Positions 10,066 through 44,739 are shown, counted from the stretch's first letter. The stretch is 51,232 bases of DNA from Nemertoderma westbladi (GCA_032718475.1 JAUCBJ010007269.1:1-51232); one strand, 5' to 3'. A program made the numbers and translations. Notes: a model not told the origin generated them from the letters alone.

Positions 10066-11265
10066 TGTTCGCGCTTTTGAAGACCTTTAGCAGTTTAACC
10101 TGCCAAAATTTATATGTCTTTTAGTTAATTAAAACACCTTTAGCATACGACAATATTTTATGCTAATAAACAAAACATTACCCGAAGTCAGCCCATGCGC
10201 GATCATTCACCCGATGGATCTACACCCGGGAGGCTGAATTCGGCTGCTTAAATTTTATTATTGCAGTGTAAGGTTGCAGTGTAAACTTACTGTATTATTC
10301 GATTGATCGTTATTAATTAATTTCTGACAGATATTATTGGCTTTCGGGAAATATTAACAGTTCCTTTAGGACGTGGCGCTCTATCTATTTAAACAGGGCT
10401 AGGACTTATACCAAACGCAACGATACTGCTTATGATTAAAGTATAAGGCGCATTCTTTAGGAAATGCTTTGTTACCAATCACAATCATGCACACTATTCT
10501 GCCGACCGTCAGTAAATTTGATCACACATAAAGAGAGCAACAATTGACTCATGTAGGGTCTGCTAAATAACATTAGATTCAATACACACCACATTAATAT
10601 AAATCGCAATTGTTATATATAGCCCGTCTCTCTAACCTGTAGTGTATCAAGAAAATTGGGAATTTTGGGTGATTTATCCGTATTCTCCAAAGAGCAATAT
10701 TTCCATCAACAAATAGATACAATTAATAACTGACGGTAAATAACAGTACAAACAATATGATTAATAGTGAGTTAATTAGATCAGATAAGATTGATTGATT
10801 AGTTGATTAGATAACAGTTTATACTTTCGATAATTTAAGCAGTTTTACTAGAGTTCTTCCCAAAAAGCCGGTGTTATGGCGAAAATGGGAACACAACAAC
10901 AGAATCATATAAAATCATATGACTACTAGCTATACGAGGATACCAACTACCCTTATTCCACAAAGCTCCCGTTCAACACAGAGGATGAGCAGTGAGATAG
11001 GAAATTCAGTTCAGTAGCTCTGGGATAGGTCGAAATCAACGCCCACTCAAATTCTATTGGCCGATACGGACAGCAGGGCTTAGGCAACCTCCCTAGGCTG
11101 GTTGGCCGATTAAACTGAGCCCAGATACCTCCGTACAGCACATCAGCCAATAAGCTGGTAGCTTGCACTATTTTACCTATAGCTCCCTTTTAGAGTATTC
11201 TAGCGACCGGGGGGGAACTGGCCAGCAAAGGCAAACGTATCAGTTATCCCACAAAAGCTTTTACA
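10066..11265 (-). repeat. 3' LTR of element A (1200 bp)
   Basis: On the minus strand it starts TGTAAAAGCTTTT and ends AAAGCGCGAACA, the same termini as the LTRs of element B. The 3' half aligns with the element B LTR (e.g. AGCGCCACGTCCTAAAGGAACTGTTAATATT). AATAAA at about 10254-10259. Confidence 0.9.
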
Positions 11266-11273
11266 CCGCTCCC
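11266..11273 (-). promoter_or_regulatory. Polypurine tract of element A (GGGAGCGG)
   Basis: Immediately 5' of the 3' LTR; identical to 44732-44739 in element B. Confidence 0.8.
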
Positions 11274-11343: not shown

Positions 11344-13119
11344 TTAGTCTTTCTTGCGCGGACGGCGTTTACGCAGTTTTTTAAAGCTAGCAAGAGTCCT
11401 TTTCTCTTTGGGGCGAGCCACTTTACGAGGAGGGCTATAACTCCTGGGTGAAGGGTGCAATATGATTGCATCAGAAGGTATGGGATTACGATCGGTATAT
11501 CCGCCGGTCGAAGTACCGGGTTGATTGACATCAACGTCCGGGGAGAGGGGTCTAACGGCTTTGAGAGCTCGTTTCAAGACAGCCGCTCTTACGGGTCCTG
11601 TACGAGTGGTCTGCACGAGGGCCGTGGGTGGACCATAGGTAGTTAGAAACTTCCTTGGTTTAATGGTTCTTTCCAACTCGCGTTCGCGGGCTCGGTACTC
11701 GTAAGGCCGTCGATATACTTCTTGTAACTCAGGGTGTGAGTTGACGAATAAGTCTCCATAGGCAGGGTCTTGACGGATAAAGTTTATTAAGTTGTAAGAA
11801 TGGATGTCACTCGGATTAATGCTCCTGAGAAATTTGCGTACATATTTGGTTGAAATACATTCTCCAACGCGCTTCAGTAGTTCATAACTTGATAGGCGTG
11901 ATTTTTGTTCGACGGAGGCAAACAAATAAGGATGGAACGCATAAACTCCTTCGTAAGCGCGTCCAGGGTAATAGCGATGGCGTGAATCACAATGTAAATC
12001 AGCGTTCGCTTCCCAAGCTCTGATATAACGTAGTACAATCATTTCATCTACGCTCTCTAAATCATGATTAAAGGGACAATCAAAGCTGGCGTGTCCTTTT
12101 AATTGACAATGATGGCATTGAGTCATAAATTGGGGGCAGACAGCAAAAATGTGCAAATTATTAAGCCGACAATATGCACAATAGATTTCCATCGACGGTT
12201 GCTCGTGGAAATAGGAACAGAGATCGTTGGTGTCCATAGACGTAATATGGTCTCTCGATGCGCACAGCCGACAACGTTGTCGAGAAACATAATTGGCGTG
12301 GCGATAATCATACGCAGTAAGACACTGTGGACCTTGATACCATTCCAATATATAGTCGCTATCGCTACTCCGAGACGTGGGGGGCTGAATCTCTTCAGAT
12401 TCTAAACATATGGGTTCGTCTTCCCCTTGTATAGTTGAGGTAGGCATGGCCGTCTCCTCAAGTGGACCTATCGTCTGAATTTCCACGACAGAATAACCTG
12501 TGGGGATCCGAGGTCTTTGGATAACCGAGGAGTGCAGGTTTATTATACAAATGTCTTTGAAAATAGCGAATCCAGCGCTATCTAACTTCTCCGCAGCCGA
12601 GTCTCTTAAGCTGAGCTTGGTCAAAGCGCGGTCTTTGAATTGGCTATCCACGTTGCGAAACGGGGTTAAAAACCGTCGGAAACATTCAAAGCGGATGAAT
12701 TTATTATGTTCATCTAGCTTAGCGAGTTTGGTCCCAAGCATTAATGGATGGGCGCGTATAGTGCGACTGCACACATCGGCTAGCCAACCGGAAAGTGCGG
12801 CGTTTTCGAAGATCGTGTAGATAGCTAAGGAGGGACGGAGTGGAACACTCATGAAGCTATACACGGCGCCAGGTGCGGTCAACGGTCCGTCAAAGTATAA
12901 TCGAGAATAATGGTCTCCGTATACTTGTTGATAGTTGATGGGATTTCCGACCTTGAAATTCCACCCGTATTCCTGAAAGGCAAGATGTCCGATGGAAGTT
13001 TGTTGCACCTTTGTAATGTTGCTAGACGCATTAGCATACATGGTGCGAAAGAAACCTCGGCCTTCTGCCCAGGGAACAATCAGCTGAGTATCCACGAAAG
13101 GGTATGGAGTGTTCTCCAT
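11344..13119 (-). CDS. Accessory ORF3 of element A, 591 aa; three CCHC-like zinc knuckles and a basic C-terminal NLS-like tail
   Basis: Long uninterrupted ORF with CRLCASRDH(x9)C, CAYCRLNNLHIFAVC and CHHCQLKGHASFDC (canonical CX2CX4HX4C). C-terminus SPRSYSPPRK...KKLRKRRPRKKD. No signal peptide or TM segment. The C-terminal ~50 aa are conserved in element B (44504-44661). Confidence 0.85.
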   Translation of the reverse strand: MENTPYPFVDTQLIVPWAEGRGFFRTMYANASSNITKVQQTSIGHLAFQEYGWNFKVGNPINYQQVYGDHYSRLYFDGPLTAPGAVYSFMSVPLRPSLAIYTIFENAALSGWLADVCSRTIRAHPLMLGTKLAKLDEHNKFIRFECFRRFLTPFRNVDSQFKDRALTKLSLRDSAAEKLDSAGFAIFKDICIINLHSSVIQRPRIPTGYSVVEIQTIGPLEETAMPTSTIQGEDEPICLESEEIQPPTSRSSDSDYILEWYQGPQCLTAYDYRHANYVSRQRCRLCASRDHITSMDTNDLCSYFHEQPSMEIYCAYCRLNNLHIFAVCPQFMTQCHHCQLKGHASFDCPFNHDLESVDEMIVLRYIRAWEANADLHCDSRHRYYPGRAYEGVYAFHPYLFASVEQKSRLSSYELLKRVGECISTKYVRKFLRSINPSDIHSYNLINFIRQDPAYGDLFVNSHPELQEVYRRPYEYRARERELERTIKPRKFLTTYGPPTALVQTTRTGPVRAAVLKRALKAVRPLSPDVDVNQPGTSTGGYTDRNPIPSDAIILHPSPRSYSPPRKVARPKEKRTLASFKKLRKRRPRKKD

Positions 13120-13823
13120 ATTCCTGTTGCACGCCTAACATGTTTTCCGCCATCGATGGGAGAGGGCAAGGAAAACCTATGACACATTCAACAAGGTTTA
13201 AAATACGATCTCAGTAGGAGGATTATGTCATTCGAAGATTATCTCCAAATTAATTTATCCCCAATTATTAAGGGAGGTGAACAACCAGATTTATGACACA
13301 CAATGGTACCAGTTGTTCACAGACTAGCCGCGTATCCTTTTAGTCCTTGTATCGGGTTGTGGACCTAAGGAAATTATCGGTGGTTGATTATGTAATCAAC
13401 GACAAAGAGATGGGCGTTGATATTATAAATACCAACACAATGGTATATGGACAGGAGGTGCGGACACGAATATAGGCATCCAGATAAACAGTAAAGGGTG
13501 GGGAGATTTATTAGGAAGCGGTATGATTCATACCACGATACCACTATGATTGGTCGATCGATGAAGGGAGTAAAGAGGAGGAAGGAGATATGGCAGTATC
13601 CATAAGACACCACAATGGACATGTTTTCCGTTACCCCATCATTCATTACTGCTTTACTAATATTAATTACTAATTACTATTACTGCATTACTGCTTACTG
13701 TGACACTGATCACAATAATTACAGGAAAACGATGAAGGAAGAGAAAGTTACAGCCTCCCGAAGGAGACCGCCCGCGAGCACCCGTGCCCCGGGGAAAACT
13801 ATTCACATTATGGACCCTAGACA

Positions 13824-14453
13824 TCAACTCATGTCTCTTCTCCAGTGGTTCCCTTCTATTAGTTCAAAGCTATCCGAGACAACAGATAGTGGACGATCTG
13901 CGGTAAGATACATCATGGTGAAATAGAGTCGTTTGAGTTCTACCATGGGATCGTGATGTATACCTTGAGGATATCGAGTCTCTAGGTTCTGTTGACTGGC
14001 AATATTGAGATAGGTTTCTCTCAAAAATTCCAAGTAGTCGTTGAAGTTGATACGCTTATCGGGTTCTTCAACGTTTTCTCTGTCGAGTAGGTTGCGAATA
14101 GAGTTCTCGTGTTCTATTCTCGGTTTATCATTACGATTCCGCTGGGCATGATATTTAAATAAAACCATTTCCCTTTCGGTGTCTACATCATCAGTATCAT
14201 GTAAATCGGTAGGATGGCCGGTAGTTAAGAAGTCCATATACGTACCATTACGATTCGTATAGCGAGCGGTGAATTTTCTATAGTCCGATTCACGCGTAAG
14301 TTGTTCCTGGGACATCGGCGGTTCGATATAACGACCATCGTCCTCCGTAATAGTTGGATCGGCTTCACCGCGTATCAAGCTATCCACAAACGCTTGTAAA
14401 GGTAGAGTATATCGCTCTCTAATACCAAAGTCATCTTCTATCAATTCCGTCAT
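13824..14453 (-). CDS. Accessory ORF2 of element A, 209 aa acidic soluble protein of unknown function
   Basis: Open ORF. The homologue in element B (from 43331) shows many third-codon-position differences (e.g. CCG/CCA, CAG/CAA, GAA/GAG, CTT/CTC in RYIEPPMSQEQL), indicating past purifying selection on the protein. Confidence 0.8.
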   Translation of the reverse strand: MTELIEDDFGIRERYTLPLQAFVDSLIRGEADPTITEDDGRYIEPPMSQEQLTRESDYRKFTARYTNRNGTYMDFLTTGHPTDLHDTDDVDTEREMVLFKYHAQRNRNDKPRIEHENSIRNLLDRENVEEPDKRINFNDYLEFLRETYLNIASQQNLETRYPQGIHHDPMVELKRLYFTMMYLTADRPLSVVSDSFELIEGNHWRRDMS

Positions 14454-14496
14454 ATCTGCTATCTGAGTTTATTAATATCAATATGAGTTAATATTT

Positions 14497-14639
14497 TAGG
14501 CAAGCGGGCGTCGCTGCCTACTAGGCTTTGCCCCCGGACAGTGGGTTTCTCAGTGCCGATGTACCGCTGTCGCAGTGTTTACGCCAACATGTAGCAACAG
14601 CACGACAACGATAACTGGCACAAGTCCCACCACTGTCCG
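14497..14639 (-). other. Predicted long RNA stem-loop plus short hairpin just upstream of ORF2 (element A)
   Basis: Closing stem CGGACAGTGG/CCACTGTCCG (14535-14544 with 14630-14639), inner stems GTGCC/GGCAC and CGTTGTCG/CGACAGCG, then hairpin AGGCAGCG...CGCTTGCCT. The same fold, with compensatory changes, is at 43141-43285. Confidence 0.7.
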
Positions 14640-15264
14640 TCCCAAAGGCTTGAATCCACTTGAGGTTATCTCGGTAGAGTTAGGGCTACTTTACAATTGC
14701 GATTAGCTACTGTAAACACACTTTAGTAGTAACATTCACCTATAAACGCACAAATTCCATACAATCATTACTTACTGCACACATGCATGCCATTTGTCCG
14801 TTAGTCAGTGTCTTCCAGAATGTCACGTTATTACTATGTATCCTTGGATACTAATAATGCGCTATGTATACTCTTATGCTACGCAATGGGGCAAGCTTTT
14901 ATTGTTCCTTTAACTTGCTTCTAATTCTAGCGTGGGTGTTGCCATGGTGACATTATGGAAAACTAGCGGTAGAATTAGGGTAATTCTCATGCATACAGAT
15001 CTGGGATGTTATTTAATAGTAATTCTTTAATTGTCAATATCCTCTTTATGCATGATTTTATAAATTTTATCGGCTATTGACTATATATTGGAGATTCTCG
15101 CACTCTAGTACACTCAATATGAATCTCCGCTCCCATGATCTATTAATTACTGGAATTTTGGGAATGTTATAAATTGCACAAAATGACAATTTATGAAATT
15201 CATTTGAATATGAATTTAAATTTATTCCCGTGAATTTTATTATTTGATGTTAAATTGACACAAA

Positions 15265-15556
15265 TTTTATTCCAGAGCATGTCTGGGAACTCAGGATCCT
15301 TAATTCTATAAAATCGTCCTTTTAAGAATATCGGTAAATACTGCGATATTTTAATTGACTAGAAATTTTAAAGGATCGGAATTTTACAGATTTTAATAAA
15401 TATTAAATTAATATTTAGGATGGGCACCGATTTATTCCAGAACTTGTCTGGGGACGTTAACCAATGATTCTAGAATTTGTCTTTCAAGTATATCGGTGGG
15501 TGCCACGATATCTTAATCGACTAGAATTACAGATGGTCAAAAAGTTTAACAGATTT
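15265..15556 (-). repeat. Two diverged ~125-bp direct repeats with hairpin potential in the 3' non-coding region of element A
   Basis: Each has the form AATCTGT..TTCTAGTC.ATTAA.ATATCG-N10-CGATAT.CTT.AA..GAC...TAGAAT...CCCAGACA.G.TCTGGAATAAA. Counterparts at about 42197-42322 and 42376-42505. Confidence 0.7.
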
Positions 15557-16073
15557 ATTTGCGATTTACGCTACTGTTAGAGGGACATCACGCTACTATA
15601 TGTATTATTTGTTATAAGGTAGAAGAGCAATATCGCACGAAGCAATGTCAGTGTGAAGAGGCAAGTCGTTTCCAAGGTCTACCCAGAGCTTGGTTTAGCC
15701 GAGACACGAGGATCTGAACTTTGCATTCCTAATACTCTGCCTACCAATAATACTTAAATATAGTAGTGGCTTTATTGTACTTTAAGAAGTACGGACATTT
15801 CATCTTACTGTAGTCACGTATTTATAATATGATACGGACAGTAAGGGAAGAGAAAATAATTATTTCTCGCCATCGCACTAAATATATATTATAGTAATTA
15901 TGTACGTAATAAACACTAATATATTGCACTAATCTACTAAATAATCCCTAAAATAACATTCTACTAAATAAAAATTGAATAAAAACGATTATAATAAAGT
16001 ACATAATAACATTTACATATAAAATGCAATAAAAACAGATAAATAATATAGACATACACCCACTCCAGACGTA

Positions 16074-19000
16074 CTACGTTGAAGAGCCCCTAGATGTTTG
16101 AGGTATTAGGGAGGTGGTCGTGGGAAGGGTTTCTTGCCTTCCATAGTTTCCAGAGAGTTCTCTGTCTCTTTCCAGTAAACATAAACGACCAACTGGGCGA
16201 TTGAGTTGTTGCGTCTCAAAGATTATGCCAGGCTTCTTGAAGTTACGCCGCATAACGATGAGTTCTACTGAACGCACTAAACCATCCTCCGAGATATGAG
16301 TCTCGATGATACGACCTGTCTGCCACCGTTTACGTGGGAGGTCTTGATCTACAATAAGTACCATATCTCCGGCGCTGACGTTTTCCTGCTGCGCAAACCA
16401 CTTAGTTCGAAGTTGTAGCGTGGGCAGGTTATGTCTCTCGAAATGGTCAGCGAAACGACGGGATAGCAACTGCATAAGTTGCCAAGTTCGACGGCAGTAT
16501 TCGTCTCCGTCGACAATCTCCGATCGTGGGAGCATGGCTACCGGTTTCTTCAGTAGGAAGTGCGCAGGTGTCAGCGCTTCCAGGGAATCGGGACTCGATG
16601 AGACTGGCATAAGCGGTCTCTCGTTGAGATAGGCAGCTATTTCCTCCATTAACGTCCGCAAAAGTTCGTCGGTGAGATACGCACGGCACGGCACTATAAA
16701 GTGAAATGCGGTCTTAACACTTCGAATTAATCTCTCCCAACTTCCTCCCCACCAAGGGGCGTCGGCGGCGTTGAAGGTCCAGCTAGACGCTGTTATCCTT
16801 AGCTGGTCATCCACCTGTCTTTGGTTCCAGTCCTTTACGTAAGCTTGTATTTCGTTGTTGGCACCAATGAAGTTCGTTCCCTTGTCCGATCTCATGGTAT
16901 TACTCGTACCGAAGCGAGCGATCTGTCGTCGTAAACTTAAGACGAAACTGTTGGTAGATAGATCGTTCACCATATCGAGATGGATGGCTCTGCAAGTCAT
17001 GCACACGAAGATGACACACCATCTCTTGACTATAGTCCTCGCACGATATACTTCAATAGGGCCAAATAAATCTACACCAGTATTAGTAAAAGGTGGTTCA
17101 TAGAAGCTTACTCGTTCCCTAGGTAATTCTGCCTCTCGCTGTGTTAAAGGCCTACTGAATGCTTTCCTACAGGGTATGCAGTTCCTAAGAACTTGGTTCA
17201 GAGCCCTACGGGGTTTATCAAAATAATAGCGAGTTCGAATTTCGCTAAGAACTCGTTCTCTTCCAGCATGATAAAGCTTACTGTGAACATCTACAATCAT
17301 CTTGATTTGTACTTCAAGATTTCTAATGAGTATGGGGAATTTAGTGTCAAAGGATAAGGGTGCATTGGTTAACCTTCCTCCAACACGTATTAATCCATCT
17401 ATCATTGTGCTAGAGAATCGATCCCTTAAGCGCATCTGCGGATTTCTCAACAACAGGAAATACTTTTCGGAATCCTCATAGCATTGCAGGAGTCTCAGTA
17501 TCTGTTTATTAGTCTCTTCATGCTCCTGGTGACTAATTTTCTCCTTTAGAAAACTGTCAGACACTTTGTATTTAGGTAAGTTTTTAATAACATGAACTTG
17601 CGCAGATGTCAATGGAGCGTTATCACTAGTGGTCTTCGCCCTGGAGTATTGATGATGAAAGCATCTCTTTAAATATGTGACGGCTTTACAGAGCCGATTC
17701 CAGGAACTGTAGTGATGCATCGCTCTCTGCAGCAGGGGTGAGATTCCTTGCGAGACGTCTGGTATTCCAGATTTCCAATCTCTATCTCGAATTTCCGCAA
17801 CAGATTTATTTATAGCGAGGGATTGTGGATCTAAACCATCGTTTCCGGAAACATGTAATACAGATAGATCGATAGTCGGTTTAAATAACTTCGATTTACT
17901 CGCCCGGGTTTTAGGTTTAACGGTCTCCGCTCCCTTGGCTTGTCTAATTTCCGCCGTAGTAAGGTGAGGAGGCCATTCGTCCTCTTCCTTGCTCAGGAAG
18001 TCGGGTCCACCCAACCAATCTGGAGTATCTATCAGTTCCTGTGGAGTTGCTCCCCTGGAGGCGATATCGGCTGGATTAATCGTACCAGGGCAATGTCTCC
18101 ATTGATCTATCTTTGTGCGACTAAGAATAATAGCTACCCTATTAGTAACAAAAACGCTGAACTGACAGACCTCATTGGTTAGATACTCCAACACGAGTAA
18201 AGCGTCGGTCCAATAAACCGTTTTCTCCAGTGGGTAATCGATTTGTTCCGTTACGTTCCGGCCGATGGCTGTAGCGTATAAAGCCGCTTTTAACTCCGCT
18301 CGAGGAACCTTTAACTTGTTGTTAATCAGTGCCTTAGAGGTAACCAAGGCGACTTTGATCCCATCCGGAGTTTCGACTCGCAGATATGCTACTATACCTA
18401 TTCCCATGTCGCTGGCGTCTCCAAACACATGGAGTTGATAGGAATACGTCGGAAGAACATGTCCAAAATATGCACGGGAAATTATAAAGTTCTCGATGGC
18501 AGGTAGAGAATCTTCCCATTTCATCCATTTCTTCAACAGTTCTCCCTTAAGCGGATCATCCCACGAGTGGTTTTCAAGCCACATCTGTTGTACTAAACTC
18601 CGAGCAATCAATATAACTGGGCTAATAAATCCCAATGGGTCGAAATAAGTGCTCAGGATACTTAAACAAATCCGTTTGGTCCGGACTGGATTATCTCGCT
18701 GTTTTAACTGAAAAAACAGGATGTCTCTTTCAGTGTCCCACTTCAAGCCTAGCGTCTTGGTTTCAGGAAGATCGTCTTTTATTAAGTCTAGGTCTTTCGC
18801 TCCGCGATCCTCTACCGGTATGGCTTCCAGAAACTCACGGGAGTTACTAGTGAATTTCGTCAGTCGAAATCCCCCTCTTTTCAAACACTCTACCGTTCCT
18901 TTCGCGACAGCTATGGCTTCTTCTACTGATGGAAGGGACCTTAAATTGTCGTCCATGTATATATTGCGTTTTATGTTGTCTATCACTTCTTTGGAGAAGG

Positions 19001-22000
19001 AGTCTCGGTTGTCATTCGCAGTGGTTCGCACCACGGAGCAGGCGTTGGAAGGGCTAGATATGATCCCAAAAGCCTGGATGGTCATCCAGTACTCCACCGG
19101 TTTCTGGTTGAGGTCTCCTTCAGGCCACCACAGAAATCTCAGGCTGTCTCTATCTCTCTCCAGCGCCTTGACTTGTAAGAACATTCCTTCGATATCGGAA
19201 GCGAACGCGATGGAATATTGTCTTATTCTCAAAAGTATTCCCAACAAAGATTGGAGTAAATTGGGTCCTGGTAACAACTCGGAATTAAGGGATTGGCCCA
19301 TATATAGAGCAGAGCCATCGAATACGACTCGTACTTCATGGGGTTTACCGGGTTTGGGAACGTAATGATGTGTTAGATAATAAGTTCTTTCAGTTATTGG
19401 AGTTCCTTCCGGTACTTGCTCCGCATATCCCTTTGTGATAAATTTCTTCAACTGAGTTTGGTACATTTCCTTAGCTGAAGCGTTTGCCGTAAGACGTCGA
19501 TGTAATTGATTGATTCTTTTCTCAGCCAAGGGTCTGTTATTTATAAATCTGGGTTCACGTTTTCGGAAGGGTAGTCCGATTTCATATCGACCTTGATCTT
19601 TTAAAAAACGTGTGGTTGTTTCCTGGATTTGCTTGGCTCTTTCTTCTTCTATCGACAGGGCTTTGTTGTATGAATTGGGTTCTACTAATTCTTGGGTAAA
19701 GAATCGTACGGCTAGTTCGTCCCGAGTTCTAGCGTTGTAGCGCTCTACCTCGTCATTAAGTTCGTCATTATAAATAATGGATTCCGTTGGGCGAATCAGT
19801 TGACATAGGTTCGTTTGGTTTTTCCAAGTTTGATTCTCTGTAAGTAGGTCAATTGTGTTCTCTTCTTCGAAGAGTTGGTAGATGTCGTCATTATCTGAGG
19901 AGTATGGTGTTCCCTCAGTTAGTTCGTCCACCTCACTGCTTTCCACTTCCCCATCGTTTACTTGATATATTTGTTCGTGTGGCATTCTCTCTTCGAGAGT
20001 TCTACGGGAAGGGCCAGTAAAGTACCAACCTACTCTAGTTCTTACCGCATAAGTTTGCAGTGGTTGTGGTTGAGCAGGCCGTTTCTCTAATGTTTCGAGC
20101 GCCTCGTGCGCGTTTTGGCCGATAAGTATTTGCACTCCAGGATAATCTGTCTGGAATCGAGGTATCTTAAGATGTTGGACGCTCTCATCTTCGTCCCAAT
20201 TATAAAGGTCTGCTTGAGTAGTAGCAAAGTTCTTTATAGCCACCATTTTTACTGACCTTATACCTTGTGTTCCTAACTTATCCTGGGGGGTGGACAACAC
20301 ACCTACATAGTAATCTGCCGTTAGGGTAGATTTCCAAACCTGCATAATTCCTGACATATTCAATTTAGTCCGGAACTTGGGTTGTCCAGCAAAGATATCT
20401 TCGGCTAGTTCTTGATCGATGAATGTTCCTGTGCTGCCGGAGTCCAGGAGGGCGTTCACTATGTAGCTTTTGTCAATACCGTGAACTCTTACCTGAACTA
20501 CAGGAAATTCTCTGATTCCTACGTTGGAAGCTGGAGCTTTCCAAGATGGTTGTTTGGCGAAAGTAGTTTGGGGAAACTCATCGTTGATGTCCTTTTCGTA
20601 AGTAAGTGCTCGATACACTGCGGTATTGATTAGATAACAGGATTCGTTGGCGTCGGAGAATTCGTCAGTATAGAATCCTTCCATCTCAGACTCCTGATCA
20701 GTGTCATTTACGTCACTAAATTGGACATGTAGTTCGGGCTCACTTACCTGACTCTGTTTGTCTCGTTCGAACTCACTGTGTAACAAGATGTGATGTTTCG
20801 CGCCACACTTTGCACACTTTATGTCTGAGTAACAGGTTCGCCGTTGGTGTCCTGGTCTGAGGCAATTATAGCATAACCGCTTGTCCCACACAACTGTACG
20901 TCTATCTACAAGGGATTTCTTTAGAAATTCAGCACACGCACTCAAACGGTGTGTCCCGTCGCACAGCGCACAGTTAGGTTTTATGTTACTCACCTTACCT
21001 TGGGTAACTTGATGCACTCTCGTTTTTTCATCGGGTTTTCTTCGGTGCATTCTGTTAGGAGACTGAGGAGGGGTCTTGGCAACCTGTTCTCTCCTATCGT
21101 TGTTTCGAGCCTTATATTTACTTACATCTTTTGAGGTTTTGTCAACATAGTAAGATCGGTCTGTGTCTTTCCCGCTGTCCTCTTCTTGGGAAGCCTGGCT
21201 TTCGCCGTCGTCAGTGTAACACACCGGTGTTACTCTTCTCCTAGAAGTGGGTTTCTCACTTACCTTATTTTCCGATGTTTCCTCTCTGGACTGATTGATG
21301 AGTTGTAGTTTGACTTCACCATCTAAGAAAGACATGAGATCAGCCATGGTAGGACTTCGTCGTTGTTGTTCATTCATGTACAACACTTTCTTGTCCCAGC
21401 GTGTACATACTCCACCCTTTGGTAAAGTAGAGACTACGGCTCCAATAACCATGGAACTCTGATATTCATGCGACTTACCTAACCAGTCCAGTTGTCTACA
21501 GATCTCTTGAATTTCATCGGAAAACTCTATAATCCCACTACTAAGGAAGTGTCGGGGGGCTACTAATTTTGCATACAAATACTTAGCTATGTTATCCTTG
21601 TTACCATACCTGATGTTTAATGTATCCCAAACTTGTCTTAATCCTTCTGGATGTCCAATAAACTTTAACGCCATTAACTTGGGAGGTCCTTCCAAGCACT
21701 TGATGAGGAATCTAAGTTTCTCTCCGTTAGATAGTACAGAGTTCTGTATGCTATCTTTGTAATATTCGTTGAAAGGTAACCATTTCATCTCATCTCCATT
21801 GAATTTGACGATCTCTCCCACTTTGACCGCTTGGCGGGCTTCTGTTCTAGCCATCTGACGCATAAAGCTTTCTTGGGCCATCGTGTTATTTAATATCGAA
21901 TTATCGGTATACAAATTTCTCGGATCATTATCAGGTCTATAGGGAATATCATTAATAACAGGTCTATAATCACCCTTAATAGGGTTTGCTATAGGAGTTT

Positions 22001-24107
22001 CAACTTCACTAGCAGTATAGATGCGTGCAGGCTCCACACCTTGCGCATGTAATACTTCAGACCTAACAGGTTGACACAATGTTACAGGGGGTATTGGTAT
22101 GCCCTTTTGGATATTGACTAATTTGTCGCGTTCTAGTGCGATACTTTGCTGCACTTCTTGCAACTCCGCTCTACCTTCCCTCACTGTTCCCTTAAGTTGG
22201 TGGACAGTCTCCTGCATCTGTCCTAGCAGGAGATTCATCCCCCGCCGCCCCTCTTCCACCCACTCAACCGCCGAAGCGGGAGTCGCCAACATAGTAGCGG
22301 GCTGACGCGGGACGACGGGAGACAAATTTTTGATTTCTCTCTCTGCTATCTGGACAGGGATATTCTCTTGGACTGCTCCACCGGGTACAGGCAATGTAGT
22401 ACTATGTAAAGGGAATTTAGAGTTAAGCTCTGGAAGTACAGGGGTCTCTAACACAGAAGTGACTTTGGGAACGACAGGCCTAATTATCTCAGGCTCATCA
22501 ACTATTGTAGAGAGTCTTTGGACCTTAATACTTTGGGCTGTAGGTTCTATACTACTCAAGTCTGTGCTAGCTAGCTGTCTTCTAACAGCTGGGGGCAAAT
22601 CAGGCAATTTGCGACGGTAAGATGTTTTTCTACGCCTACTTAGATGAGATCTATTTCCTCCGCCTTCAGGATCGGTAGTCTCGCCTTCCTCCGAGGACGT
22701 GTATCCCTGGCGCTTGGGAGTAGATTTTCTCATCATCTGCATTTGATTAGCAGTAAACTGTTTATTTATGCTATCTTGCGCCTCTTGCAGATTTTCCAAC
22801 TCTAGTTGGATAGTCTCCTCAGACGCTCTCCGTTCTGCTTCTGCCACTGTTGCTTTTCTTTCGGCTTCCGCCGCTTTTCTTTCTGCTTCTGCTTCTGCCG
22901 CTTTTGCTTTTCTTTCGGCTTCTGCTTCTGCCGCTTTTGCTTTTCTTTCGGCTTCTGCTTCTTTTCTTTCTGCTTCTGCTTCCGCCGCCGCTGCTGCTGC
23001 TACCTTCCTTTTCTCTATCCGTTCTTTCTTTACTTGATCTTCTCGGACTCTAGTGAGGCGGAGTTGTTCATCACATTCAGCTTGGTTTGCAGCTAACATT
23101 TCGGCATCGATTGAGTCCAACACAAGCTTGGTTCCTTCACTATTAGGGGAAAGCCCAGACAGCCGTCTCCTCAACTCTTCGTCTCCTAGGAATCGCTGAT
23201 AGTCGGACAAATAAATGTCGATAGCGTCTCTAGTTCGCGGCTTCTCGGCGGTCTCTTTGCTTTCCGCTTGAGAAAGGGTGACATCAGTTGGTTCTTCATA
23301 GGTTGATCTCTCAGCTAGCTGGGATTTCCACTGGGCCGTTTCCTGTACTTTGAGATCTACCCTATGTAACCAAGTTTTGACAGCAACCTGCAGCGACGTG
23401 TCTTGTCTTCTTTTGGAAGTTTCCTCAAAGGCTGAGAGGATTAGTCGTATGCGTAGGGTTCTTTCGCGTATTTGGTATAGCAGCTCTTCCTGCTCTTGAG
23501 GTCCTTGAGGTTGTCGAAACAGTTGTTCTTCCAATCGCTCCAAGGAGCCGAAGAATCCCTGCACATATCCTGATGCCGACCTCTTCCAAACAGCTGGATC
23601 CATTGTATCTTGTGCCACTCCCATCCTGTGTATATCATCCCAAGTAGCCTCGGACAGGTCCAACGGGAGTCCGAGTCCGGGAAAGTTCCATTGTGACTCG
23701 ACAATAGACATTAATTCTTCCCTGGCGTATCCCGCATAATTATCTCGGGTCGCTCGCTTATTCCTCGCCCAGTCGGCTTGATGTTCCTCCACCGCAATGA
23801 ATATAGTAGTTAGCACTGCAGCAGGAAGGGTAAGAAGGGGGTCCGAGTAGACTGTAACAGCCATCTGCCCTCCGCGTTCGGGGGTCAGCTCTACAGTATC
23901 CGAACTGCTAGAGCTATCGGGTCGCTGGGAAGTAGGTTCTTGACCAAGATGTTGCTGCGATGGGACAACTGCCTCTTGGTTCCGTTTGACCTGTGCCCGA
24001 GTGCCTATGATGGACCTATGGTGGATTAGCCTAGGGTCTGATACTACTGGAGGGATGACCTTTTTTGCAGTAGGAGGTGAGCTGAACTCCTTTCTTAATC
24101 GCTCCAC
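16074..24107 (-). CDS. Bel/Pao Gag-Pol polyprotein, 2677 aa (Gag, protease, RT, RNase H, integrase)
   Basis: Three Gag Cys/His motifs (CALCDGTHRLSAC, CYNCLRPGHQRRTC, CAKCGAKHHILLH); protease ALLDSGS; RT SDIEGMFLQV, RFLWW, YMDD; RNase H LHVFGDAS, PRAEL, WTD, NPADIASRG; integrase HHCC plus GVDLFGP, SDKGTNF, WERLIRSVK. True start uncertain (the track uses a GTG; the first ATG is about codon 82). Confidence 0.96.
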   Translation of the reverse strand: MERLRKEFSSPPTAKKVIPPVVSDPRLIHHRSIIGTRAQVKRNQEAVVPSQQHLGQEPTSQRPDSSSSSDTVELTPERGGQMAVTVYSDPLLTLPAAVLTTIFIAVEEHQADWARNKRATRDNYAGYAREELMSIVESQWNFPGLGLPLDLSEATWDDIHRMGVAQDTMDPAVWKRSASGYVQGFFGSLERLEEQLFRQPQGPQEQEELLYQIRERTLRIRLILSAFEETSKRRQDTSLQVAVKTWLHRVDLKVQETAQWKSQLAERSTYEEPTDVTLSQAESKETAEKPRTRDAIDIYLSDYQRFLGDEELRRRLSGLSPNSEGTKLVLDSIDAEMLAANQAECDEQLRLTRVREDQVKKERIEKRKVAAAAAAEAEAERKEAEAERKAKAAEAEAERKAKAAEAEAERKAAEAERKATVAEAERRASEETIQLELENLQEAQDSINKQFTANQMQMMRKSTPKRQGYTSSEEGETTDPEGGGNRSHLSRRRKTSYRRKLPDLPPAVRRQLASTDLSSIEPTAQSIKVQRLSTIVDEPEIIRPVVPKVTSVLETPVLPELNSKFPLHSTTLPVPGGAVQENIPVQIAEREIKNLSPVVPRQPATMLATPASAVEWVEEGRRGMNLLLGQMQETVHQLKGTVREGRAELQEVQQSIALERDKLVNIQKGIPIPPVTLCQPVRSEVLHAQGVEPARIYTASEVETPIANPIKGDYRPVINDIPYRPDNDPRNLYTDNSILNNTMAQESFMRQMARTEARQAVKVGEIVKFNGDEMKWLPFNEYYKDSIQNSVLSNGEKLRFLIKCLEGPPKLMALKFIGHPEGLRQVWDTLNIRYGNKDNIAKYLYAKLVAPRHFLSSGIIEFSDEIQEICRQLDWLGKSHEYQSSMVIGAVVSTLPKGGVCTRWDKKVLYMNEQQRRSPTMADLMSFLDGEVKLQLINQSREETSENKVSEKPTSRRRVTPVCYTDDGESQASQEEDSGKDTDRSYYVDKTSKDVSKYKARNNDRREQVAKTPPQSPNRMHRRKPDEKTRVHQVTQGKVSNIKPNCALCDGTHRLSACAEFLKKSLVDRRTVVWDKRLCYNCLRPGHQRRTCYSDIKCAKCGAKHHILLHSEFERDKQSQVSEPELHVQFSDVNDTDQESEMEGFYTDEFSDANESCYLINTAVYRALTYEKDINDEFPQTTFAKQPSWKAPASNVGIREFPVVQVRVHGIDKSYIVNALLDSGSTGTFIDQELAEDIFAGQPKFRTKLNMSGIMQVWKSTLTADYYVGVLSTPQDKLGTQGIRSVKMVAIKNFATTQADLYNWDEDESVQHLKIPRFQTDYPGVQILIGQNAHEALETLEKRPAQPQPLQTYAVRTRVGWYFTGPSRRTLEERMPHEQIYQVNDGEVESSEVDELTEGTPYSSDNDDIYQLFEEENTIDLLTENQTWKNQTNLCQLIRPTESIIYNDELNDEVERYNARTRDELAVRFFTQELVEPNSYNKALSIEEERAKQIQETTTRFLKDQGRYEIGLPFRKREPRFINNRPLAEKRINQLHRRLTANASAKEMYQTQLKKFITKGYAEQVPEGTPITERTYYLTHHYVPKPGKPHEVRVVFDGSALYMGQSLNSELLPGPNLLQSLLGILLRIRQYSIAFASDIEGMFLQVKALERDRDSLRFLWWPEGDLNQKPVEYWMTIQAFGIISSPSNACSVVRTTANDNRDSFSKEVIDNIKRNIYMDDNLRSLPSVEEAIAVAKGTVECLKRGGFRLTKFTSNSREFLEAIPVEDRGAKDLDLIKDDLPETKTLGLKWDTERDILFFQLKQRDNPVRTKRICLSILSTYFDPLGFISPVILIARSLVQQMWLENHSWDDPLKGELLKKWMKWEDSLPAIENFIISRAYFGHVLPTYSYQLHVFGDASDMGIGIVAYLRVETPDGIKVALVTSKALINNKLKVPRAELKAALYATAIGRNVTEQIDYPLEKTVYWTDALLVLEYLTNEVCQFSVFVTNRVAIILSRTKIDQWRHCPGTINPADIASRGATPQELIDTPDWLGGPDFLSKEEDEWPPHLTTAEIRQAKGAETVKPKTRASKSKLFKPTIDLSVLHVSGNDGLDPQSLAINKSVAEIRDRDWKSGIPDVSQGISPLLQRAMHHYSSWNRLCKAVTYLKRCFHHQYSRAKTTSDNAPLTSAQVHVIKNLPKYKVSDSFLKEKISHQEHEETNKQILRLLQCYEDSEKYFLLLRNPQMRLRDRFSSTMIDGLIRVGGRLTNAPLSFDTKFPILIRNLEVQIKMIVDVHSKLYHAGRERVLSEIRTRYYFDKPRRALNQVLRNCIPCRKAFSRPLTQREAELPRERVSFYEPPFTNTGVDLFGPIEVYRARTIVKRWCVIFVCMTCRAIHLDMVNDLSTNSFVLSLRRQIARFGTSNTMRSDKGTNFIGANNEIQAYVKDWNQRQVDDQLRITASSWTFNAADAPWWGGSWERLIRSVKTAFHFIVPCRAYLTDELLRTLMEEIAAYLNERPLMPVSSSPDSLEALTPAHFLLKKPVAMLPRSEIVDGDEYCRRTWQLMQLLSRRFADHFERHNLPTLQLRTKWFAQQENVSAGDMVLIVDQDLPRKRWQTGRIIETHISEDGLVRSVELIVMRRNFKKPGIIFETQQLNRPVGRLCLLERDRELSGNYGRQETLPTTTSLIPQTSRGSST

Positions 24108-24114
24108 ACTCCTC

Positions 24115-34242: not shown

Positions 34243-35473
34243 TGTAAAAGCTTTTACTGAATTGTCCGGTTATTTTTCCTTATTTTTCCCGTAAAGTACT
34301 CTGTAGTTGGTTTACCAGGCATAAAAAGGCCGTGTCCTTGCTGTACTGGTGTTTTAGCGGACATAAGAGCTATTTCTTCTGTATTTGTACTTTAGAGGAC
34401 ATAATCCGTAATTCCGTGACGTAAAAGCTCGATACTCTTGAAAACAGTGTCGCTACCATGACGACGGCTAGCAGCTGATATTGCCACGTCCACCTTTCTT
34501 TGTTTCTCTGTTCTCTCGTTGTTCATGTTGACCAATCAGAGCGTTTGTGATCTCTGTGTTGGAGGTATATACAGAAACTCAGTAGTTCAGTGTTATGTTT
34601 TTGTCCAGAGCCTAAGAACCGGCTTTGGCACCTCCGTGTTTTAGTTTTTAGTCTTACACTAGTAGGTTTAATTATAAAGGGCATATATCCTTTAACGCAC
34701 CTACCTGACTCATGGAATCACTGCATACTGATGACTGATGTCTGTATACTGCAGTACTGCATACACTGCATACTGTGTAACATTGTGCATACCTTTATAT
34801 TGTTATACTGCTATTAACCGTCAGTTCTTCATAATATGGTTGATGAATAATTATATTTGGAATAACGATAAACAACCCCGAAACCCAATATTCTTGATAT
34901 ACCGAAGGTAAGAGAGAAGGGTTACAGATAAACGATTGTGACTTATGTTAAAGTGGTTTGAAGTGAATCTAATGTTATTTGATAGACCCTACATGAGTCA
35001 GTCTGTGTTCCTTTTATATGTGACTAAAATCAGTGAAGATTGGCAGATTAGTGTGCAGTATTGTGCAGCATTGTGTATGAGTGAGTCTGTTAAAGAAGCA
35101 ATTCCTAAAGAATGCGCCATATATGTGAATTATAATTAAGCCATATCGTTGTGAGTAGTTTAAGTCATAACTCTGTTTATATAGATAAAGCGCCACGTCC
35201 TAAAGGAACTGTTAATATTACCGAAGGTGAATAATATTGTCAGAGATTATATAATACTGTCAGTCGAATAATACATTAGGCTTACATAGCAATACAAATT
35301 AAACCGTCGAACCCAATCTCCCGGGAATATCCAGCGGGTGAATGGTCGCGCACGGATTGGTTTCGACTAGTGTAGTGAATCAAATACTTGTCATAGACTA
35401 AAAAGCAGATTTATTATCTAGAAGACATTCTAATTTGGCGGGTTAAACTGCCAAAGGTCTGAAAGCGCGAACA
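34243..35473 (+). repeat. 5' LTR of element B
   Basis: TGTAAAAGC...GCGCGAACA. Only two differences from the 3' LTR were seen by eye (CCACGTCCACC vs CCACGTCGACG). CCAAT at about 34532, TATATA at 34566, TCAGT at 34579 and 34587. Confidence 0.97.
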
Positions 35474-35744
35474 TTAAAGGATATTGCTTCTTTATTGCAG
35501 TAAGCAATAAAGTCGAAAGTACCGGTCGACCGGTAACCAGTAGGCCTGACTGCCTGATCATCCGGACCGGTACCTACAGCAGTATTATTCGATTTTGATA
35601 ATTATATACCGGTAGGCCTTAATAATTAATCAGGGAGGGCCCGCCCTGGTTTTTTATTGAGTTTTTACTTATTTCTGTCAAGTTTTATTTATTTGTAGGC
35701 CAGTATTGAACAGAAGGCGTGTAAACCTGATCAGATTGTACAGA

Positions 35745-36312
35745 CAATTTGTAGGCTGAGCTGTTGTCTGATTGCTGTTAAGTCCGAACGAATTGCAGTG
35801 TGTGTAGAGCACTTGTCCGATTAAGTACGGTTAGGAAGTAGGGGCAGCCACGCTGTAAGGTAAACCCCCAACTAAAGAATAAGTCGCACTACTGGGTTAG
35901 AGCGCATACTCCCTAATCATTTCGGAGTCTGCATGTCCTGTATTTTATTTAGGCTTGAGAGTAGTCTGCCATCGTTTAGTCTGTACTTTGTTTGTGTAAG
36001 TCTGTACGGGTAGCGTATAATTTTATTTAGATAATTTGTAGGCTGGATAGTTGTCTGGCTGTTATTAAGTCTGAGCGGATTGCCGCGTGTGTAGATCATC
36101 TGTCCGATTAAGTACGATTAGGCAGTAGGGGCAGCAACGCTGTAAGGTAAACCCCCAACTAAAGAATAAGTCGCACTACTGGGTTAGAGCGCATACTCCC
36201 TAATCATTTCGGAGTCTGCATATACCGTAGTTTGTTTAGGCTTGATAGTAGTCTGTCAGTGTTCGGTCTGTATTTTATTTGAGTAGTTTGTACGCGTAGC
36301 GTAATATTTATT
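35745..36312 (+). repeat. 287-bp tandem duplication in the 5' leader of element B with a nearly invariant core
   Basis: Copies start at about 35751 and 36038. The ~95-nt core GTAGGGGCAGC.ACGCTGTAAGG...CATTTCGGAGTCTGCAT is essentially identical while the flanks are diverged. Confidence 0.9.
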
Positions 36313-37632
36313 ATTCAGAGTTTATGCGATTATTCGCAACATTCATTCCCTAAGTTTGTTCCTACAGTAATTGTGTTTGTTATACATACCGTTATAGTTA
36401 AATTAACCCCGGTACTATACGGGCTGCTCGGCGTAGGTAAAGACTGGTGATTTTGTGCATCGGTCACTCCAGCAGATGCCGTGGTTCTTTTAGCTGTTCA
36501 AGTATATTTAACTACTGATTATTTGTTGTACAAGTACTCGTACCTAATTTAGGGTTTAGTGTACAGTGCTTTCCCGAAGTAATTATTGTAGCCATTATAT
36601 TTGTGTTGTAAAGTGGTTGATAGGCACATTCGATTAGCTCTATTAACTTCTAGGTAGGAACACTCCGTGATACATAACGTAGAACCTATAGCGATACGGC
36701 TATAGGTCGTCAGGCGGTGGTATTTTCCTATCTAGACAACGCAGTGTATTTGCTACTACTTATTATTTCAAATACCGTAGTACCCTGTCCGCTGTAATAA
36801 TCAGTTTTCTAACCCTTTGTTAGGCTGGTTTGTAGACTTCTTGTAAAATTACCCTAAAAATTCGTATTTTGTGTTTTTTTGTAAATTTTTGTGTTTATTT
36901 AGAGATTGTAATCTCACCCGAATTGTACGTAATTTGTAGTATTAAGTAACTTAGGTAAATTAGAATTATTTGTTTTAGTGTCTCATAAGTAACACTTCAC
37001 TGAAAGCGCACCGCTTTGTGTAGTGATTACTCCCCAGAAATAATAACATTTATTTCAAACATTGGCAAAACCCATTAAAACGGGTATATATAAATTATAA
37101 ATCAAATCTAACGATTTATAAATAGTAGGCCTACCATATAACAATTAGGTCTCAATATCAGTTGGATTACTGCTCAAATAACGGTAATAAAGTAAGTAAA
37201 GTAACAAAGTAACCCTAAAGTAACAGAAATTCAATTATTTGAAATAATTGATATACCGGTATTTACGATAGGCCTATTATCTTTATTTCTATAAATCTAG
37301 GCTGAAATTGTACCGGTACTTGTAATTAATTCTATTTCAGAATTATATATCCTACAAACTGTAAGCTGTATACCGGTATTCCGATAGGCCTATTATATAT
37401 TTATATATATTTGTGCTAAAATTATACCGGTGTTCTGTGATAAACCTGGTCTGTAATAATACTTATATAGTTATATATACTATAAGCATACCGGTATTCT
37501 AATATATTATATATATCACGCTACACTGAGTAGCAGTACCGATAATTAATTACTAGGCTATCAGTTAATACTGAGTTACTAGACTTGCTCAGACTGTAAT
37601 ACAGCAGTAGACATTCAACTGTACACACAAAC

Positions 37633-43330: not shown

Positions 43331-43750
43331 ATGATGGAGTTGATAGCAGATGTTCTTGGTATCGGGGAGCGATATACTCTACTTTTGCAAGCGTTTGTTG
43401 ATAGCTTAATACGCGGCGACGTTAGTCCAACTGCTGCGGAGGACGATGGTCGTTATATCGAACCGCCAATGTCCCAAGAGCAGCTCGCGCGCGAGTTGGA
43501 CTATAGAAAATTCGCTGCTCGATACGCAGCGTAATGGTACGTATGTGGTCTTCTTAACTACTGGTCATCCTATCGATTTACACAATACGGACTATGTCGA
43601 CTATATATCCTGCCCAGCGGAGTCGGAACCATAAACTGAAATTCGAATGCGAAAATTCTATTCGAAATCGACTCGAAAGAAAAGACACTAAAGAAACAAA
43701 TGGACGCGGTAACTCCAACGTATATTTGGAATTCTTGATAGAAGCATTGT
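43331..43750 (+). pseudogene. Frameshifted remnant of accessory ORF2 in element B
   Basis: MMELIADVLGIGERYTLLLQAFVDSLIRG...RYIEPPMSQEQL aligns with ORF2. A frameshift near 43530 moves RNGTYVVFLTTGHP to another frame, with further decay beyond. Confidence 0.85.
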
Positions 43751-44661: not shown

Positions 44662-44739
44662 CTGTTTAGAGTATCTTTATGTTTTAGAAACTGTGATTTT
44701 TATATTTTATAGACTGAAAATCCCATTTTCTGGGAGCGG

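Follow-up and report, generated by a model that had tools for sequence, protein, structure and literature searches.

A Bel/Pao retrotransposon in the genome of Nemertoderma westbladi carries, between pol and its 3' LTR, two open reading frames unlike an envelope gene and a long conserved non-coding stretch. Related elements have either an envelope gene or no gene at all in this position. Such a module appears to be new in Bel/Pao, although Gypsy elements are known to have non-Env accessory ORFs as well as a Rev-like protein (CERV). We tentatively read this part of the element, referred to as element A, as a family-wide non-envelope module in which a cis-acting RNA stretch and two trans-acting proteins, one of them (ORF3) RNA-binding, would steer export or packaging. 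It is likely that ORF2, ORF3 and the non-coding RNA together control the element's own RNA, and element A would thereby stand closer to a complex retrovirus than to the usual Bel/Pao element.

The window analysed here, a stretch of 51,232 nucleotides (JAUCBJ010007269.1:1-51232 of GCA_032718475.1), contains element A on the minus strand, with an intact Gag-Pol of 2596 aa and a 5' LTR that is absent from the window; counted without 5' LTR and leader, the element is at least 13.8 kb long. Gag-Pol has three gag knuckles and the motifs of protease (PR), reverse transcriptase (RT; YMDD), RNase H (RH) and integrase (IN), with Peptidase_A17, DUF1759, DUF5641 and Integrase_H2C2 all above the Pfam cut-offs. 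The Gag-PR-RT-RH-IN order is that of Bel/Pao (Belpaoviridae), as is a polypurine tract (PPT) before a 3' LTR of the 0.2-1.2 kb class (1200 nt in A; a 1231-nt pair in the related element B). The best 120 Gag-Pol relatives listed are about 30-46% identical, mostly 35-38% (best local alignment, parts of pol), and all 120 carry PF05380. No tRNA genes were found in the window. The original prediction described about 4.8 kb from pol stop to PPT with a 1.6-kb non-coding region and ORFs of 209 and 591 aa on the strand of Gag-Pol, and the coordinates confirm this layout:

10066..11265, minus strand: 3' LTR of element A, 1200 nt, TG...CA, without a 5' partner in the window
11266..11273, minus strand: PPT, with the same sequence in element B
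11344..13119, minus strand: ORF3, 591 aa (open frame, codon usage, family pieces); residues 1-195, N-domain of no known family followed by an acidic S/T/P linker; residues 283-348, three CCHC-like motifs; residues 356-490, predicted helical region followed by a P/S/T-rich basic tail
13120..13823, minus strand: spacer between ORF2 and ORF3, 0.7 kb, unmatched in element B
13824..14453, minus strand: ORF2, 209 aa (open frame, codon usage, dN/dS)
14454..16073, minus strand: non-coding region 3' of the pol stop, 1620 nt, conserved in element B, a candidate for acting in cis as RNA or DNA
14498..14519, minus strand: small hairpin of 8 bp whose stem is the same in A and B
14535..14639, minus strand: GU-rich long hairpin, 105 nt, about 80 nt upstream of the ORF2 start (fold and pairing test)
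15260..15378, minus strand: duplicated two-hairpin module, copy 2, weaker (fold z -0.15 in A, -2.0 in B)
15425..15540, minus strand: duplicated two-hairpin module of about 115 nt, copy 1 (fold z -4.1 in A, -3.0 in B)
15441..15940, minus strand: hyper-conserved core of the non-coding region (identity to B)
16074..23864, minus strand: Gag-Pol, one 2596-aa ORF of Bel/Pao type (Pfam and motif order)

A comparison is offered by element B, a non-autonomous relative in the same window. Element B transposed recently, because its 1231-nt LTRs are 99.8% identical and it is flanked by a 5-bp target duplication (CGCTA). RT has been deleted along with most of RH and IN, and the ORF2 frame is broken near 43525 and 43600. 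Bel/Pao elements have a tRNA-type primer binding site (PBS; 18 nt, tRNA-Arg/Gly), whereas no TGG-starting PBS was found after the 5' LTR of B; Tf1-like self-priming was considered and rejected, complements being present but none at the likely transcription start. The parts of B that bear on the argument are:

34243..45970, plus strand: element B (LTRs, target duplication)
37633-41679, plus strand: Gag-PR, open frame
41680-43330, plus strand: non-coding region, retained
44500-44660, plus strand: ORF3 remnant, in which the last 55 or so codons alone are recognisable, the remainder being replaced

The non-coding region was predicted to be conserved, and indeed 1380 of 1608 aligned sites (86%) are identical between A and B, compared with 73% (264 of 364) at four-fold sites of gag (P 4e-9 for the non-coding excess). 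This excess indicates that the region from 14454 to 16073 is under constraint. Within the core identity rises to 471 of 499 sites (94%), and a predicted long basal stem there encloses a 100-nt block that is 99% conserved. A hidden ORF in the core was rejected, the longest stop-free frame being at most 58 codons. The expectation of structured RNA held clearly for the hairpin at 14535-14639 but poorly for the core, which is the most conserved part and yet folds weakly (z -2.5, with 1 of 100 shuffles as good) and gave no significant result in the pairing test between A and B. The core may instead be a DNA element or the product of recent recombination between A and B. An Rfam search of the non-coding region returned no match (mir-23 at E 0.58, far short of threshold).

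The 14535-14639 hairpin folds with z -4.65 in A and -6.32 in B in the sense direction, compared with -2.8 and -3.0 in antisense. Its pairing persists through substitutions on the RNA-sense strand, G-U pairs included: 5 pairs are broken against 11.7 expected (P about 0.002, from two sequences only), 4 against 10.5 in the reverse direction, and the shuffle control built into the tool gave 39 of 500. By these results the hairpin works on the sense strand of the element. Lying directly before ORF2, it could as well be a translation or splicing signal as a response element. The small hairpin at 14498-14519 is invariant between A and B and gives no covariation evidence, the second module copy gave P 0.26 in the pairing test, and a search for more copies of the module turned up nothing beyond the four input sequences, the next best match having E 0.19. 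Since non-autonomous B keeps the region and the pairing of one hairpin is maintained, the non-coding region likely exerts a cis effect on the RNA of the element.

Both frames look like genes. None of 1000 shuffles of the region reached 209 aa (longest 159), and the codon usage of ORF2 and ORF3 matches that of Gag-Pol in their own frame only. Ratios of dN/dS between A and B were computed by four methods. Over 136 codons ORF2 gave 0.28-0.47, compared with 0.74-0.96 in shifted frames, with a third-position excess at P 0.002; gag-PR gave 0.18-0.24. These ratios indicate that ORF2 is under purifying selection. The 40 rows of family copies listed show two differences in ORF2, both non-synonymous. 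For ORF3 the comparison with B covers the last 55 codons only and gave 0.6-1.1, not below 1. Pieces of ORF3 do, however, recur with few gaps in family copies about 16% diverged. The frames are not confined to this one copy, as the original prediction required. Among the 32 family contig rows listed, the 6 on ORF3 hold 308 differences and 3 gap letters (summed by hand), the 18 on gag-pol 889 and 17, and the 2 that are purely non-coding and diverged 41 and 9; the pieces were picked for length and likeness, which biases them toward ungapped ones. None of the 12 best-supported indels of family copies falls in ORF2 or ORF3.

Neither protein was expected to have a signal peptide or transmembrane (TM) helix, and this was borne out on the Kyte-Doolittle scale, the one measure used: the best 19-residue windows reach 0.52 in ORF2 and 1.37 in ORF3, and both N-termini are polar. 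With no Env match in Pfam or PDB, an Env identity was rejected for both. A fusogen of the sORF2/FAST type (an ORF of about 70 aa with a central TM segment and then a polybasic region) was likewise rejected, as ORF2 and ORF3 lack a TM segment. The spacer folds better than shuffles (z -3.8, 0 of 20 as good) and holds short sense ORFs of 53 and 90 aa that are hydrophobic and of doubtful meaning; as fusogen candidates they were set aside, having no basic region downstream and no match in B.

Profile and structure searches placed neither protein in a family. ORF2 is acidic (net -16), free of cysteine and without a hydrophobic segment; it had no family match in Pfam, PDB, PHROGs or NCBIfam, and a database search confined to the "longer" length class matched 0 of 317. 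For ORF3, a word-index search matched 0 of 4124 candidates, 1.84 billion representatives gave no match, 0 of 72 pattern matches in metagenome contigs held up, and PDB, PHROGs and NCBIfam were blank. A search for loci of relatives through the integrase yielded none among 5 viral pattern matches and none among 62 from metagenomes, and neither ORF matched any of 121 Gag-Pol proteins (best E 0.8 and 0.48). What was recovered for ORF3 is a sub-region resemblance to Pfam zf-CCHC_3 (E 0.003, under the cut-off), with one of the three CCHC-like motifs canonical. All but two of the Atlas neighbours listed bear a CCHC family or name (scores at most 0.86). The tail ends in an NLS-like K/R cluster, 9 of the last 15 residues being K or R; at most 6 Arg fall within any 15 residues, and the eight NES-like patterns are no more than so loose a pattern yields. 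Because of its three CCHC-like motifs and basic tail, ORF3 is predicted to be a nuclear zinc-knuckle protein with the features of a nucleic-acid binder, and on the same features it would likely bind the element's own RNA.

These observations suggest a division of labour. Because so recent an insertion as B holds the non-coding region at high identity, while its ORF2 is broken and its ORF3 mostly replaced, the region would act in cis and the two proteins in trans. ORF2 and ORF3 would be made from subgenomic RNAs, spliced or internally started, although neither is preceded by a clean 3' splice site that has a pyrimidine tract. Full-length RNA would then require a route past nuclear retention, which ORF3 could provide, for export or packaging, by binding the conserved region; ORF2, acidic and soluble, might be a cofactor or adaptor, and B-type copies would borrow ORF3 and Pol in trans. 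A Rev-like export step for the RNA of element A is doubtful. Equally speculative is the fullest version of the scheme: a first "complex" Bel/Pao, an env-less lineage with an independent Rev/RRE-like switch, whose new zinc-knuckle protein, perhaps joined to a tyrosine-recombinase fold that is dead, would bind conserved RNA for export or packaging of genomic RNA, and which would be parasitised by non-autonomous copies that keep the RNA element alone and perhaps prime reverse transcription without tRNA.

Several other explanations can be weighed against the same evidence. The non-coding region could be an export or packaging signal of the CTE/MTE type that depends on host factors and needs no element protein, with ORF2 and ORF3 as real accessory genes doing a separate job. 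The duplicated hairpin module and the retention of the region in B without the ORFs would both fit, and env-less MusD is described as having protein-independent transport elements in its 3' region (PMC4588558). We nevertheless find this somewhat doubtful, as module copy 2 in A folds no better than shuffles, and the knuckles and basic tail of ORF3 are left unexplained. The core could instead be an internal promoter, with the hairpins as leader or IRES for ORF2 and ORF3, and ORF3 a DNA-binding transactivator, possibly on a dead tyrosine-recombinase-like domain. The foamy virus layout offers an internal-promoter analogue. The core is conserved more in sequence than in structure, TATAAA occurs in both elements (15826 in A, 41925 in B), and a hairpin abuts ORF2; yet B retains the region with no ORF2 or ORF3 left to express. 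Residues 356-450 of ORF3 weakly resemble SSV-type integrases (PF16795 at E 0.086, 13.2 bits against a cut-off of 27; PDB 4dks/3vcf at E 0.56), and our own 12-sequence profile gave 10.7 bits, a score that none of 2000 shuffles and none of 3116 decoys reached. This match was picked from 24,736 families, however, where P 1.7e-5 corresponds to about 0.4 expected, and 15 of 48 conserved columns agree; the motifs that we take to be catalytic in such recombinases are absent. AlphaFold single-sequence models reached pLDDT 34 and 42 and were unusable, and Foldseek on the second returned nothing and was uninformative. An SSV-type identity was rejected, and the promoter explanation as a whole is unlikely.

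ORF2 and ORF3 might also be counter-defence proteins, directed for instance at piRNA/siRNA silencing or at nuclear RNA decay, with the ORF3 knuckles mimicking decay adaptors of the Air/ZCCHC type. Among the Atlas neighbours are CCHC proteins of AIR2-like and CNBP/HEXBP-like kinds (scores below 0.9, a lead only), the complete absence of ORF3 homologs in the searches suggests fast evolution, and the enzymatic ORF3s of bdelloid LTR elements have been discussed in such terms (PMC5408684). The two proteins match no such host protein in sequence, and the conserved non-coding region is unaccounted for; we regard this as quite unlikely. Very improbable is a captured or nested passenger, a second gag or a host gene, now decaying, while the high non-coding identity would come from the A and B lineages having recently recombined. 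Gag-like knuckles in ORF3, the loss of both ORFs in B, and the 91% identity and low dS of the ORF3 tail and PPT region, which may be a trace of recombination, are what one would expect of it. The ORFs have no extra LTR or repeat at their bounds, however, and the searches run matched no gag homolog, host gene or nested element, in agreement with the original prediction. Furthermore, ORF2 shows purifying selection, the 591-codon frame is open and nearly gap-free in diverged copies, and four-fold identity is rather uniform across gag, the pol remnant and ORF2 (0.58-0.83 per 40 sites, with 0.66 for ORF2). The reading as a cis RNA stretch with two trans proteins is the one we prefer, tentatively.

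On this preferred reading, a selected two-gene non-Env module accompanied by a cis RNA would mean that Bel/Pao, too, evolved regulatory complexity. The pair of autonomous A and non-autonomous B in one genome is a natural map of cis requirements, and the orphan proteins ORF2 and ORF3 may have new folds. The regulatory module of the original prediction stands in part (non-Env ORFs, a cis-like region and the binder features of ORF3), and a literature search found no non-Env 3' accessory module described in Bel/Pao (Repbase and GyDB entries lay outside its scope). As a concept it is not novel, given the precedents in Gypsy-type elements discussed below.

Element A resembles other Bel/Pao elements in its single Gag-PR-RT-RH-IN ORF, Pfam markers, LTR of about 1.2 kb, short PPT and extra coding capacity in the stretch from pol to the 3' LTR, and exceeds their quoted size of 4.2-10 kb. 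Early papers on the Cer elements of C. elegans reportedly describe an extra ORF in Cer7, which could lower the novelty of the module. Bel/Pao replication has been described as poorly understood, with an env-like gene as the sole recognised extra (PMC8742986). The env-bearing Belpaoviridae/Semotivirus members, as these accounts portray them, include Tas, Cer7 and Atlas (PMC8742986, PMC554778, PMC9094657); the extra ORFs of element A differ in being two, not Env-like and accompanied by 1.6 kb of conserved non-coding sequence. Non-Env accessory ORFs are described in Gypsy-type elements, namely sORF1/sORF2 of MDG1 (PMC11952523), the bdelloid ORF3s (PMC5408684) and the antisense ORFs of plant Retand (PMC11963269, PMC7264820). 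As far as these sources describe them, they too are extra ORFs found family-wide and under selection, some nuclear and with a proposed regulatory role; they differ in superfamily, position or orientation, and in none of these accounts is the product a CCHC-cluster protein encoded 3' in sense orientation. Neither ORF2 nor ORF3 gives evidence of a TM fusogen.

Rev and Rex are far smaller than ORF3, and the non-autonomous ETn is a partner of MusD that shares its transport element. HIV Rev/RRE and HTLV Rex/RxRE (PMC4588558) offer a likeness in that a basic nuclear protein is proposed to act together with a structured RNA in the 3' half; they differ in that the region of element A has no Rfam match, ORF3 is knuckle-based, and binding and export are here predicted. 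The MTE of MusD, like related CTE-type elements, is by the same account a non-coding region with structure that an env-less LTR element carries in its 3' part, but the MTE is about 400 nt and adjoins the 3' LTR, whereas two ORFs intervene in element A (PMC4588558). By analogy, the closest functional model for ORF3 is CERV from Cer1, a Gypsy element of C. elegans; CERV is reported to be required for export of unspliced RNA (PMC10309623). CERV (517 aa) is likewise a large orphan accessory protein with a Cys-rich motif, a candidate basic NLS and a proline-directed phosphosite; on that description it is a Gypsy protein spliced from gag-region exons with a C4 finger, whereas ORF3 is a 3' ORF with a CCHC cluster in a Bel/Pao element (PMC10309623). 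No sequence link to CERV appeared when ORF3 was run through the word-index search and against the 1.84 billion representatives. If ORF3 were Rev-like, it would represent a further independent solution for the export of unspliced retroelement RNA, after Rev/Rex and CERV.

Two related Bel/Pao elements lie in the window, element A on the minus strand and element B on the plus strand. In the Gag-Pol of element A, Peptidase_A17, DUF1759, DUF5641 and Integrase_H2C2 all score above the Pfam cut-offs, and the motif order is PR, RT, RNase H, integrase.

Features of elements A and B
16074-23864, minus: Gag-Pol of A, single ORF, 2596 aa
14454-16073, minus: non-coding region of A directly after the pol stop, 1620 nt, without a long ORF
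15425-15540 and 15260-15378, minus: duplicated module of about 115 nt, folding well in 3 of 4 copies
14535-14639, minus: GU-rich hairpin, 105 nt, z -4.65 in A and -6.32 in B, antisense weaker
14498-14519, minus: invariant 8-bp hairpin that comes after the 105-nt hairpin
13824-14453, minus: ORF2 of A, 209 aa
13120-13823, minus: spacer separating ORF2 and ORF3, 0.7 kb
11344-13119, minus: ORF3 of A, 591 aa
11266-11273, minus: PPT of A
10066-11265, minus: LTR of A, 3' of the PPT, 1200 nt
34243-45970, plus: element B, LTRs 99.8% identical, 5-bp target duplication

No second copy of the element A LTR was found within the window, and the element is therefore cut at its 5' end. At that limit, five 63-bp tandem repeats and then a long G run occupy 24051-24543, with a 152-aa ORF across the repeats (24007-24465, plus strand). 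The pol of element A is mostly 35-38% identical to the best 120 relatives listed, which argues that its lineage is distant from them; those carrying a name represent fishes, molluscs, echinoderms, a coral, a nemertean and an arachnid. Judged by the range of the family, an animal host is likely. Gag of element A contains a coiled-coil repeat rich in Ala, Glu, Lys and Arg (22806-23016), and element B has a shorter version.

The original prediction placed non-env accessory genes in the env position, and the two ORFs bear this out as real and unlike Env. The longest ORF in 1000 shuffles of the 4.8-kb region was 159 aa, with at least 209 aa reached in 0/1000; both ORFs match Gag-Pol codon usage in their own frame only, and no segment of either exceeds 1.4 in hydropathy, nor is either N-terminus hydrophobic. 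ORF2 is acidic and lacks Cys. In ORF3, residues 283-348 hold three CCHC-like motifs, of which one is canonical (zf-CCHC_3, E 0.003, under the Pfam cut-off); part of the protein is predicted to be helical, and K/R make up 9 of 15 residues in the tail. No homolog of ORF3 was found in a word-index search, 1.84 billion representatives, metagenome contigs, PDB, PHROGs or NCBIfam; its Atlas neighbours are mostly CCHC proteins, with scores of 0.86 or less, and are a lead only. A less thorough search with ORF2 found none in Pfam, PDB, PHROGs, NCBIfam or the "longer" length class. Residues 356-450 of ORF3 are weakly like SSV-type tyrosine recombinases, a match picked out of 24,736 families; a 12-sequence recombinase profile scores this segment above 2000/2000 shuffles and 3116/3116 decoys, and the catalytic motifs of recombinases were not found in it. 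In the spacer lie a sense 53-aa hydrophobic ORF with a start that overlaps the stop of ORF2 (13663-13824, minus), another short hydrophobic ORF (13374-13646, minus), and an antisense 103-aa ORF with a hydrophobic N-terminal stretch and then a basic one, a FAST-like layout (13615-13926, plus). The short hydrophobic spacer ORFs have no Pfam match and no counterpart in element B, and are likely due to chance.

Comparison of A with B indicates purifying selection on ORF2 (dN/dS 0.28-0.47 across 136 codons with four methods; gag-PR, 0.18-0.24), with differences enriched at third positions (P 0.002) and shifted-frame controls at 0.74-0.96. The ORF3 tail gives 0.6-1.1, so a protein-level signal is absent there. 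What bears on the body of ORF3 is indirect evidence. All 30 bins of the element are covered in four of four runs (X1, X3, X4 and X5). Among the 32 piece rows listed of >114,000, where long, alike pieces are favoured and sums were made by hand, the gap pattern of the ORF3 pieces (6 rows; 308 differences, 3 gap letters) resembles that of gag-pol (18 rows; 889 and 17) and differs from that of diverged non-coding pieces (2 rows; 41 and 9). None of the 12 best-supported indels falls within ORF2 or ORF3. Of the listed substitutions 33/40 are inside ORFs, the synonymous share being 20/30 in gag-pol, 1/1 in ORF3 and 0/2 in ORF2.

Element B, which its LTR identity and target duplication mark as having moved recently, serves as a natural deletion experiment. 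Its Gag-PR is open, RT and most of RH/IN are absent, ORF2 is broken, and ORF3 is reduced to its final ~55 codons. The non-coding region is entire, and is identical to that of A at 1380/1608 sites (86%), rising to 471/499 (94%) in the core (15441-15940), against a baseline of 264/364 four-fold gag sites (73%; P 4e-9 for the whole region and 3e-19 for the core); the conservation claimed for the region thus holds against B. We infer that the parts kept by this non-autonomous copy are needed in cis, and that a trans source can make up for the lost ones. Another possible reason for high identity is a recent recombination of the A lineage with the B lineage. Four-fold sites show a fairly even identity across gag, the pol remnant and ORF2, but the ORF3 tail, at 20/22 such sites, leaves room for an exchange of this kind.

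Internally deleted variants of the family occur in DNA runs, with joints at 12425-14091, 16209-17924 and 18109-19881; the last two are close to the pol deletions of element B, so that copies of its type are likely a subfamily. Directly after its 5' LTR (35474-35500) element B has no TGG-starting tRNA primer site, despite its recent transposition. The first 11 nt there are complementary to LTR positions 34685-34695 (shuffle P 0.003); a second complement, at 35091-35102, corresponds to nt 10-21 (P 0.002). Both complementary sites lie away from the probable start of transcription, so self-priming of the Tf1 type is not a simple fit; 5'-3' pairing with U3 is possible. The 2.1-kb leader (35474-37632), with an internal duplication of ~290 nt at 35742-36319, matches neither the leader of A nor its first 192 gag codons (23289-24500), and Gag starts ~190 codons later than in A. 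The 750 nt that stand in place of most of ORF3 (43750-44500) match neither A nor the rest of the window, whether compared as DNA or as protein. Palindromic repeats (MITE- or foldback-like), about 77-85% alike, flank element B on both sides (30909-31900 and 46179-46824). Minisatellite arrays occupy 25042-27520, 27796-28724, 29581-30027, 33452-33945 and 49679-50890, with units of 61-62, 21, 22, 29, 34-39 and 35 bp.

A structured RNA had also been predicted, and this is borne out in one domain and not in the best-conserved part. The strongest signal in a 52-window scan of the element A 3' region (14521-14640, sense strand, z -5.6) coincides with the 105-nt hairpin. When A is folded alone and B's changes are mapped onto it, 5 pairs are broken where 11.7 would be expected (P 0.002); in the reverse mapping 4 are broken, the expectation being 10.5; a pair-shuffle control, on two sequences, yielded only 39/500. 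The duplicated module has z of -4.1 in A and -3.0 in B at 15425-15540, and -0.15 and -2.0 at 15260-15378; no copies beyond the four were found. The core folds only modestly (z -2.5), and it has changed too little for its pairing to be tested. A hidden ORF was looked for in the core and is not present, and Rfam gave no match.

Anatomy, constraint, the hairpin and the cis/trans split are the observed basis for the favoured but tentative model, possible though short of probable, in which a cis RNA region works with trans accessory proteins and ORF3 binds the RNA of its own element to control how that RNA is exported or packaged. ORF2 and ORF3 would be expressed from a subgenomic RNA, for which no clear splice acceptor was found in the sequence, and ORF3 would be nuclear and bind RNA at a particular target. 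That export specifically is the governed step seems unlikely. The non-coding region might instead be a transport element dependent on host factors, with the ORFs unrelated to it, which we consider rather unlikely, or an internal promoter or IRES, with ORF3 a DNA-binding protein, which is more doubtful. A role in counter-defence is quite unlikely, and a decaying passenger is very unlikely.

Element A belongs to a divergent Bel/Pao lineage and carries a real, family-wide, non-Env accessory module that combines a conserved cis region with orphan proteins. The ICTV profile describes Bel/Pao elements of 4.2-10 kb with gag, pol, an env-like gene and a tRNA PBS (PMC8742986), and PMC3118150 agrees. 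No non-Env accessory module in Bel/Pao was found in the literature searched, and none is named in passages of PMC2774666, PMC554778, PMC8220671 and PMC9094657. Other reports describe non-Env accessory ORFs in MDG1 elements (PMC11952523), bdelloid LTR elements (PMC5408684) and plant Retand (PMC11963269, PMC7264820), and a transport element at the 3' side of MusD (PMC4588558). In the Gypsy element Cer1, CERV is a 517-aa Cys-rich orphan required for export of unspliced RNA (PMC10309623). With that Gypsy precedent, a Rev-like mechanism for the Bel/Pao module would be a reasonable guess.
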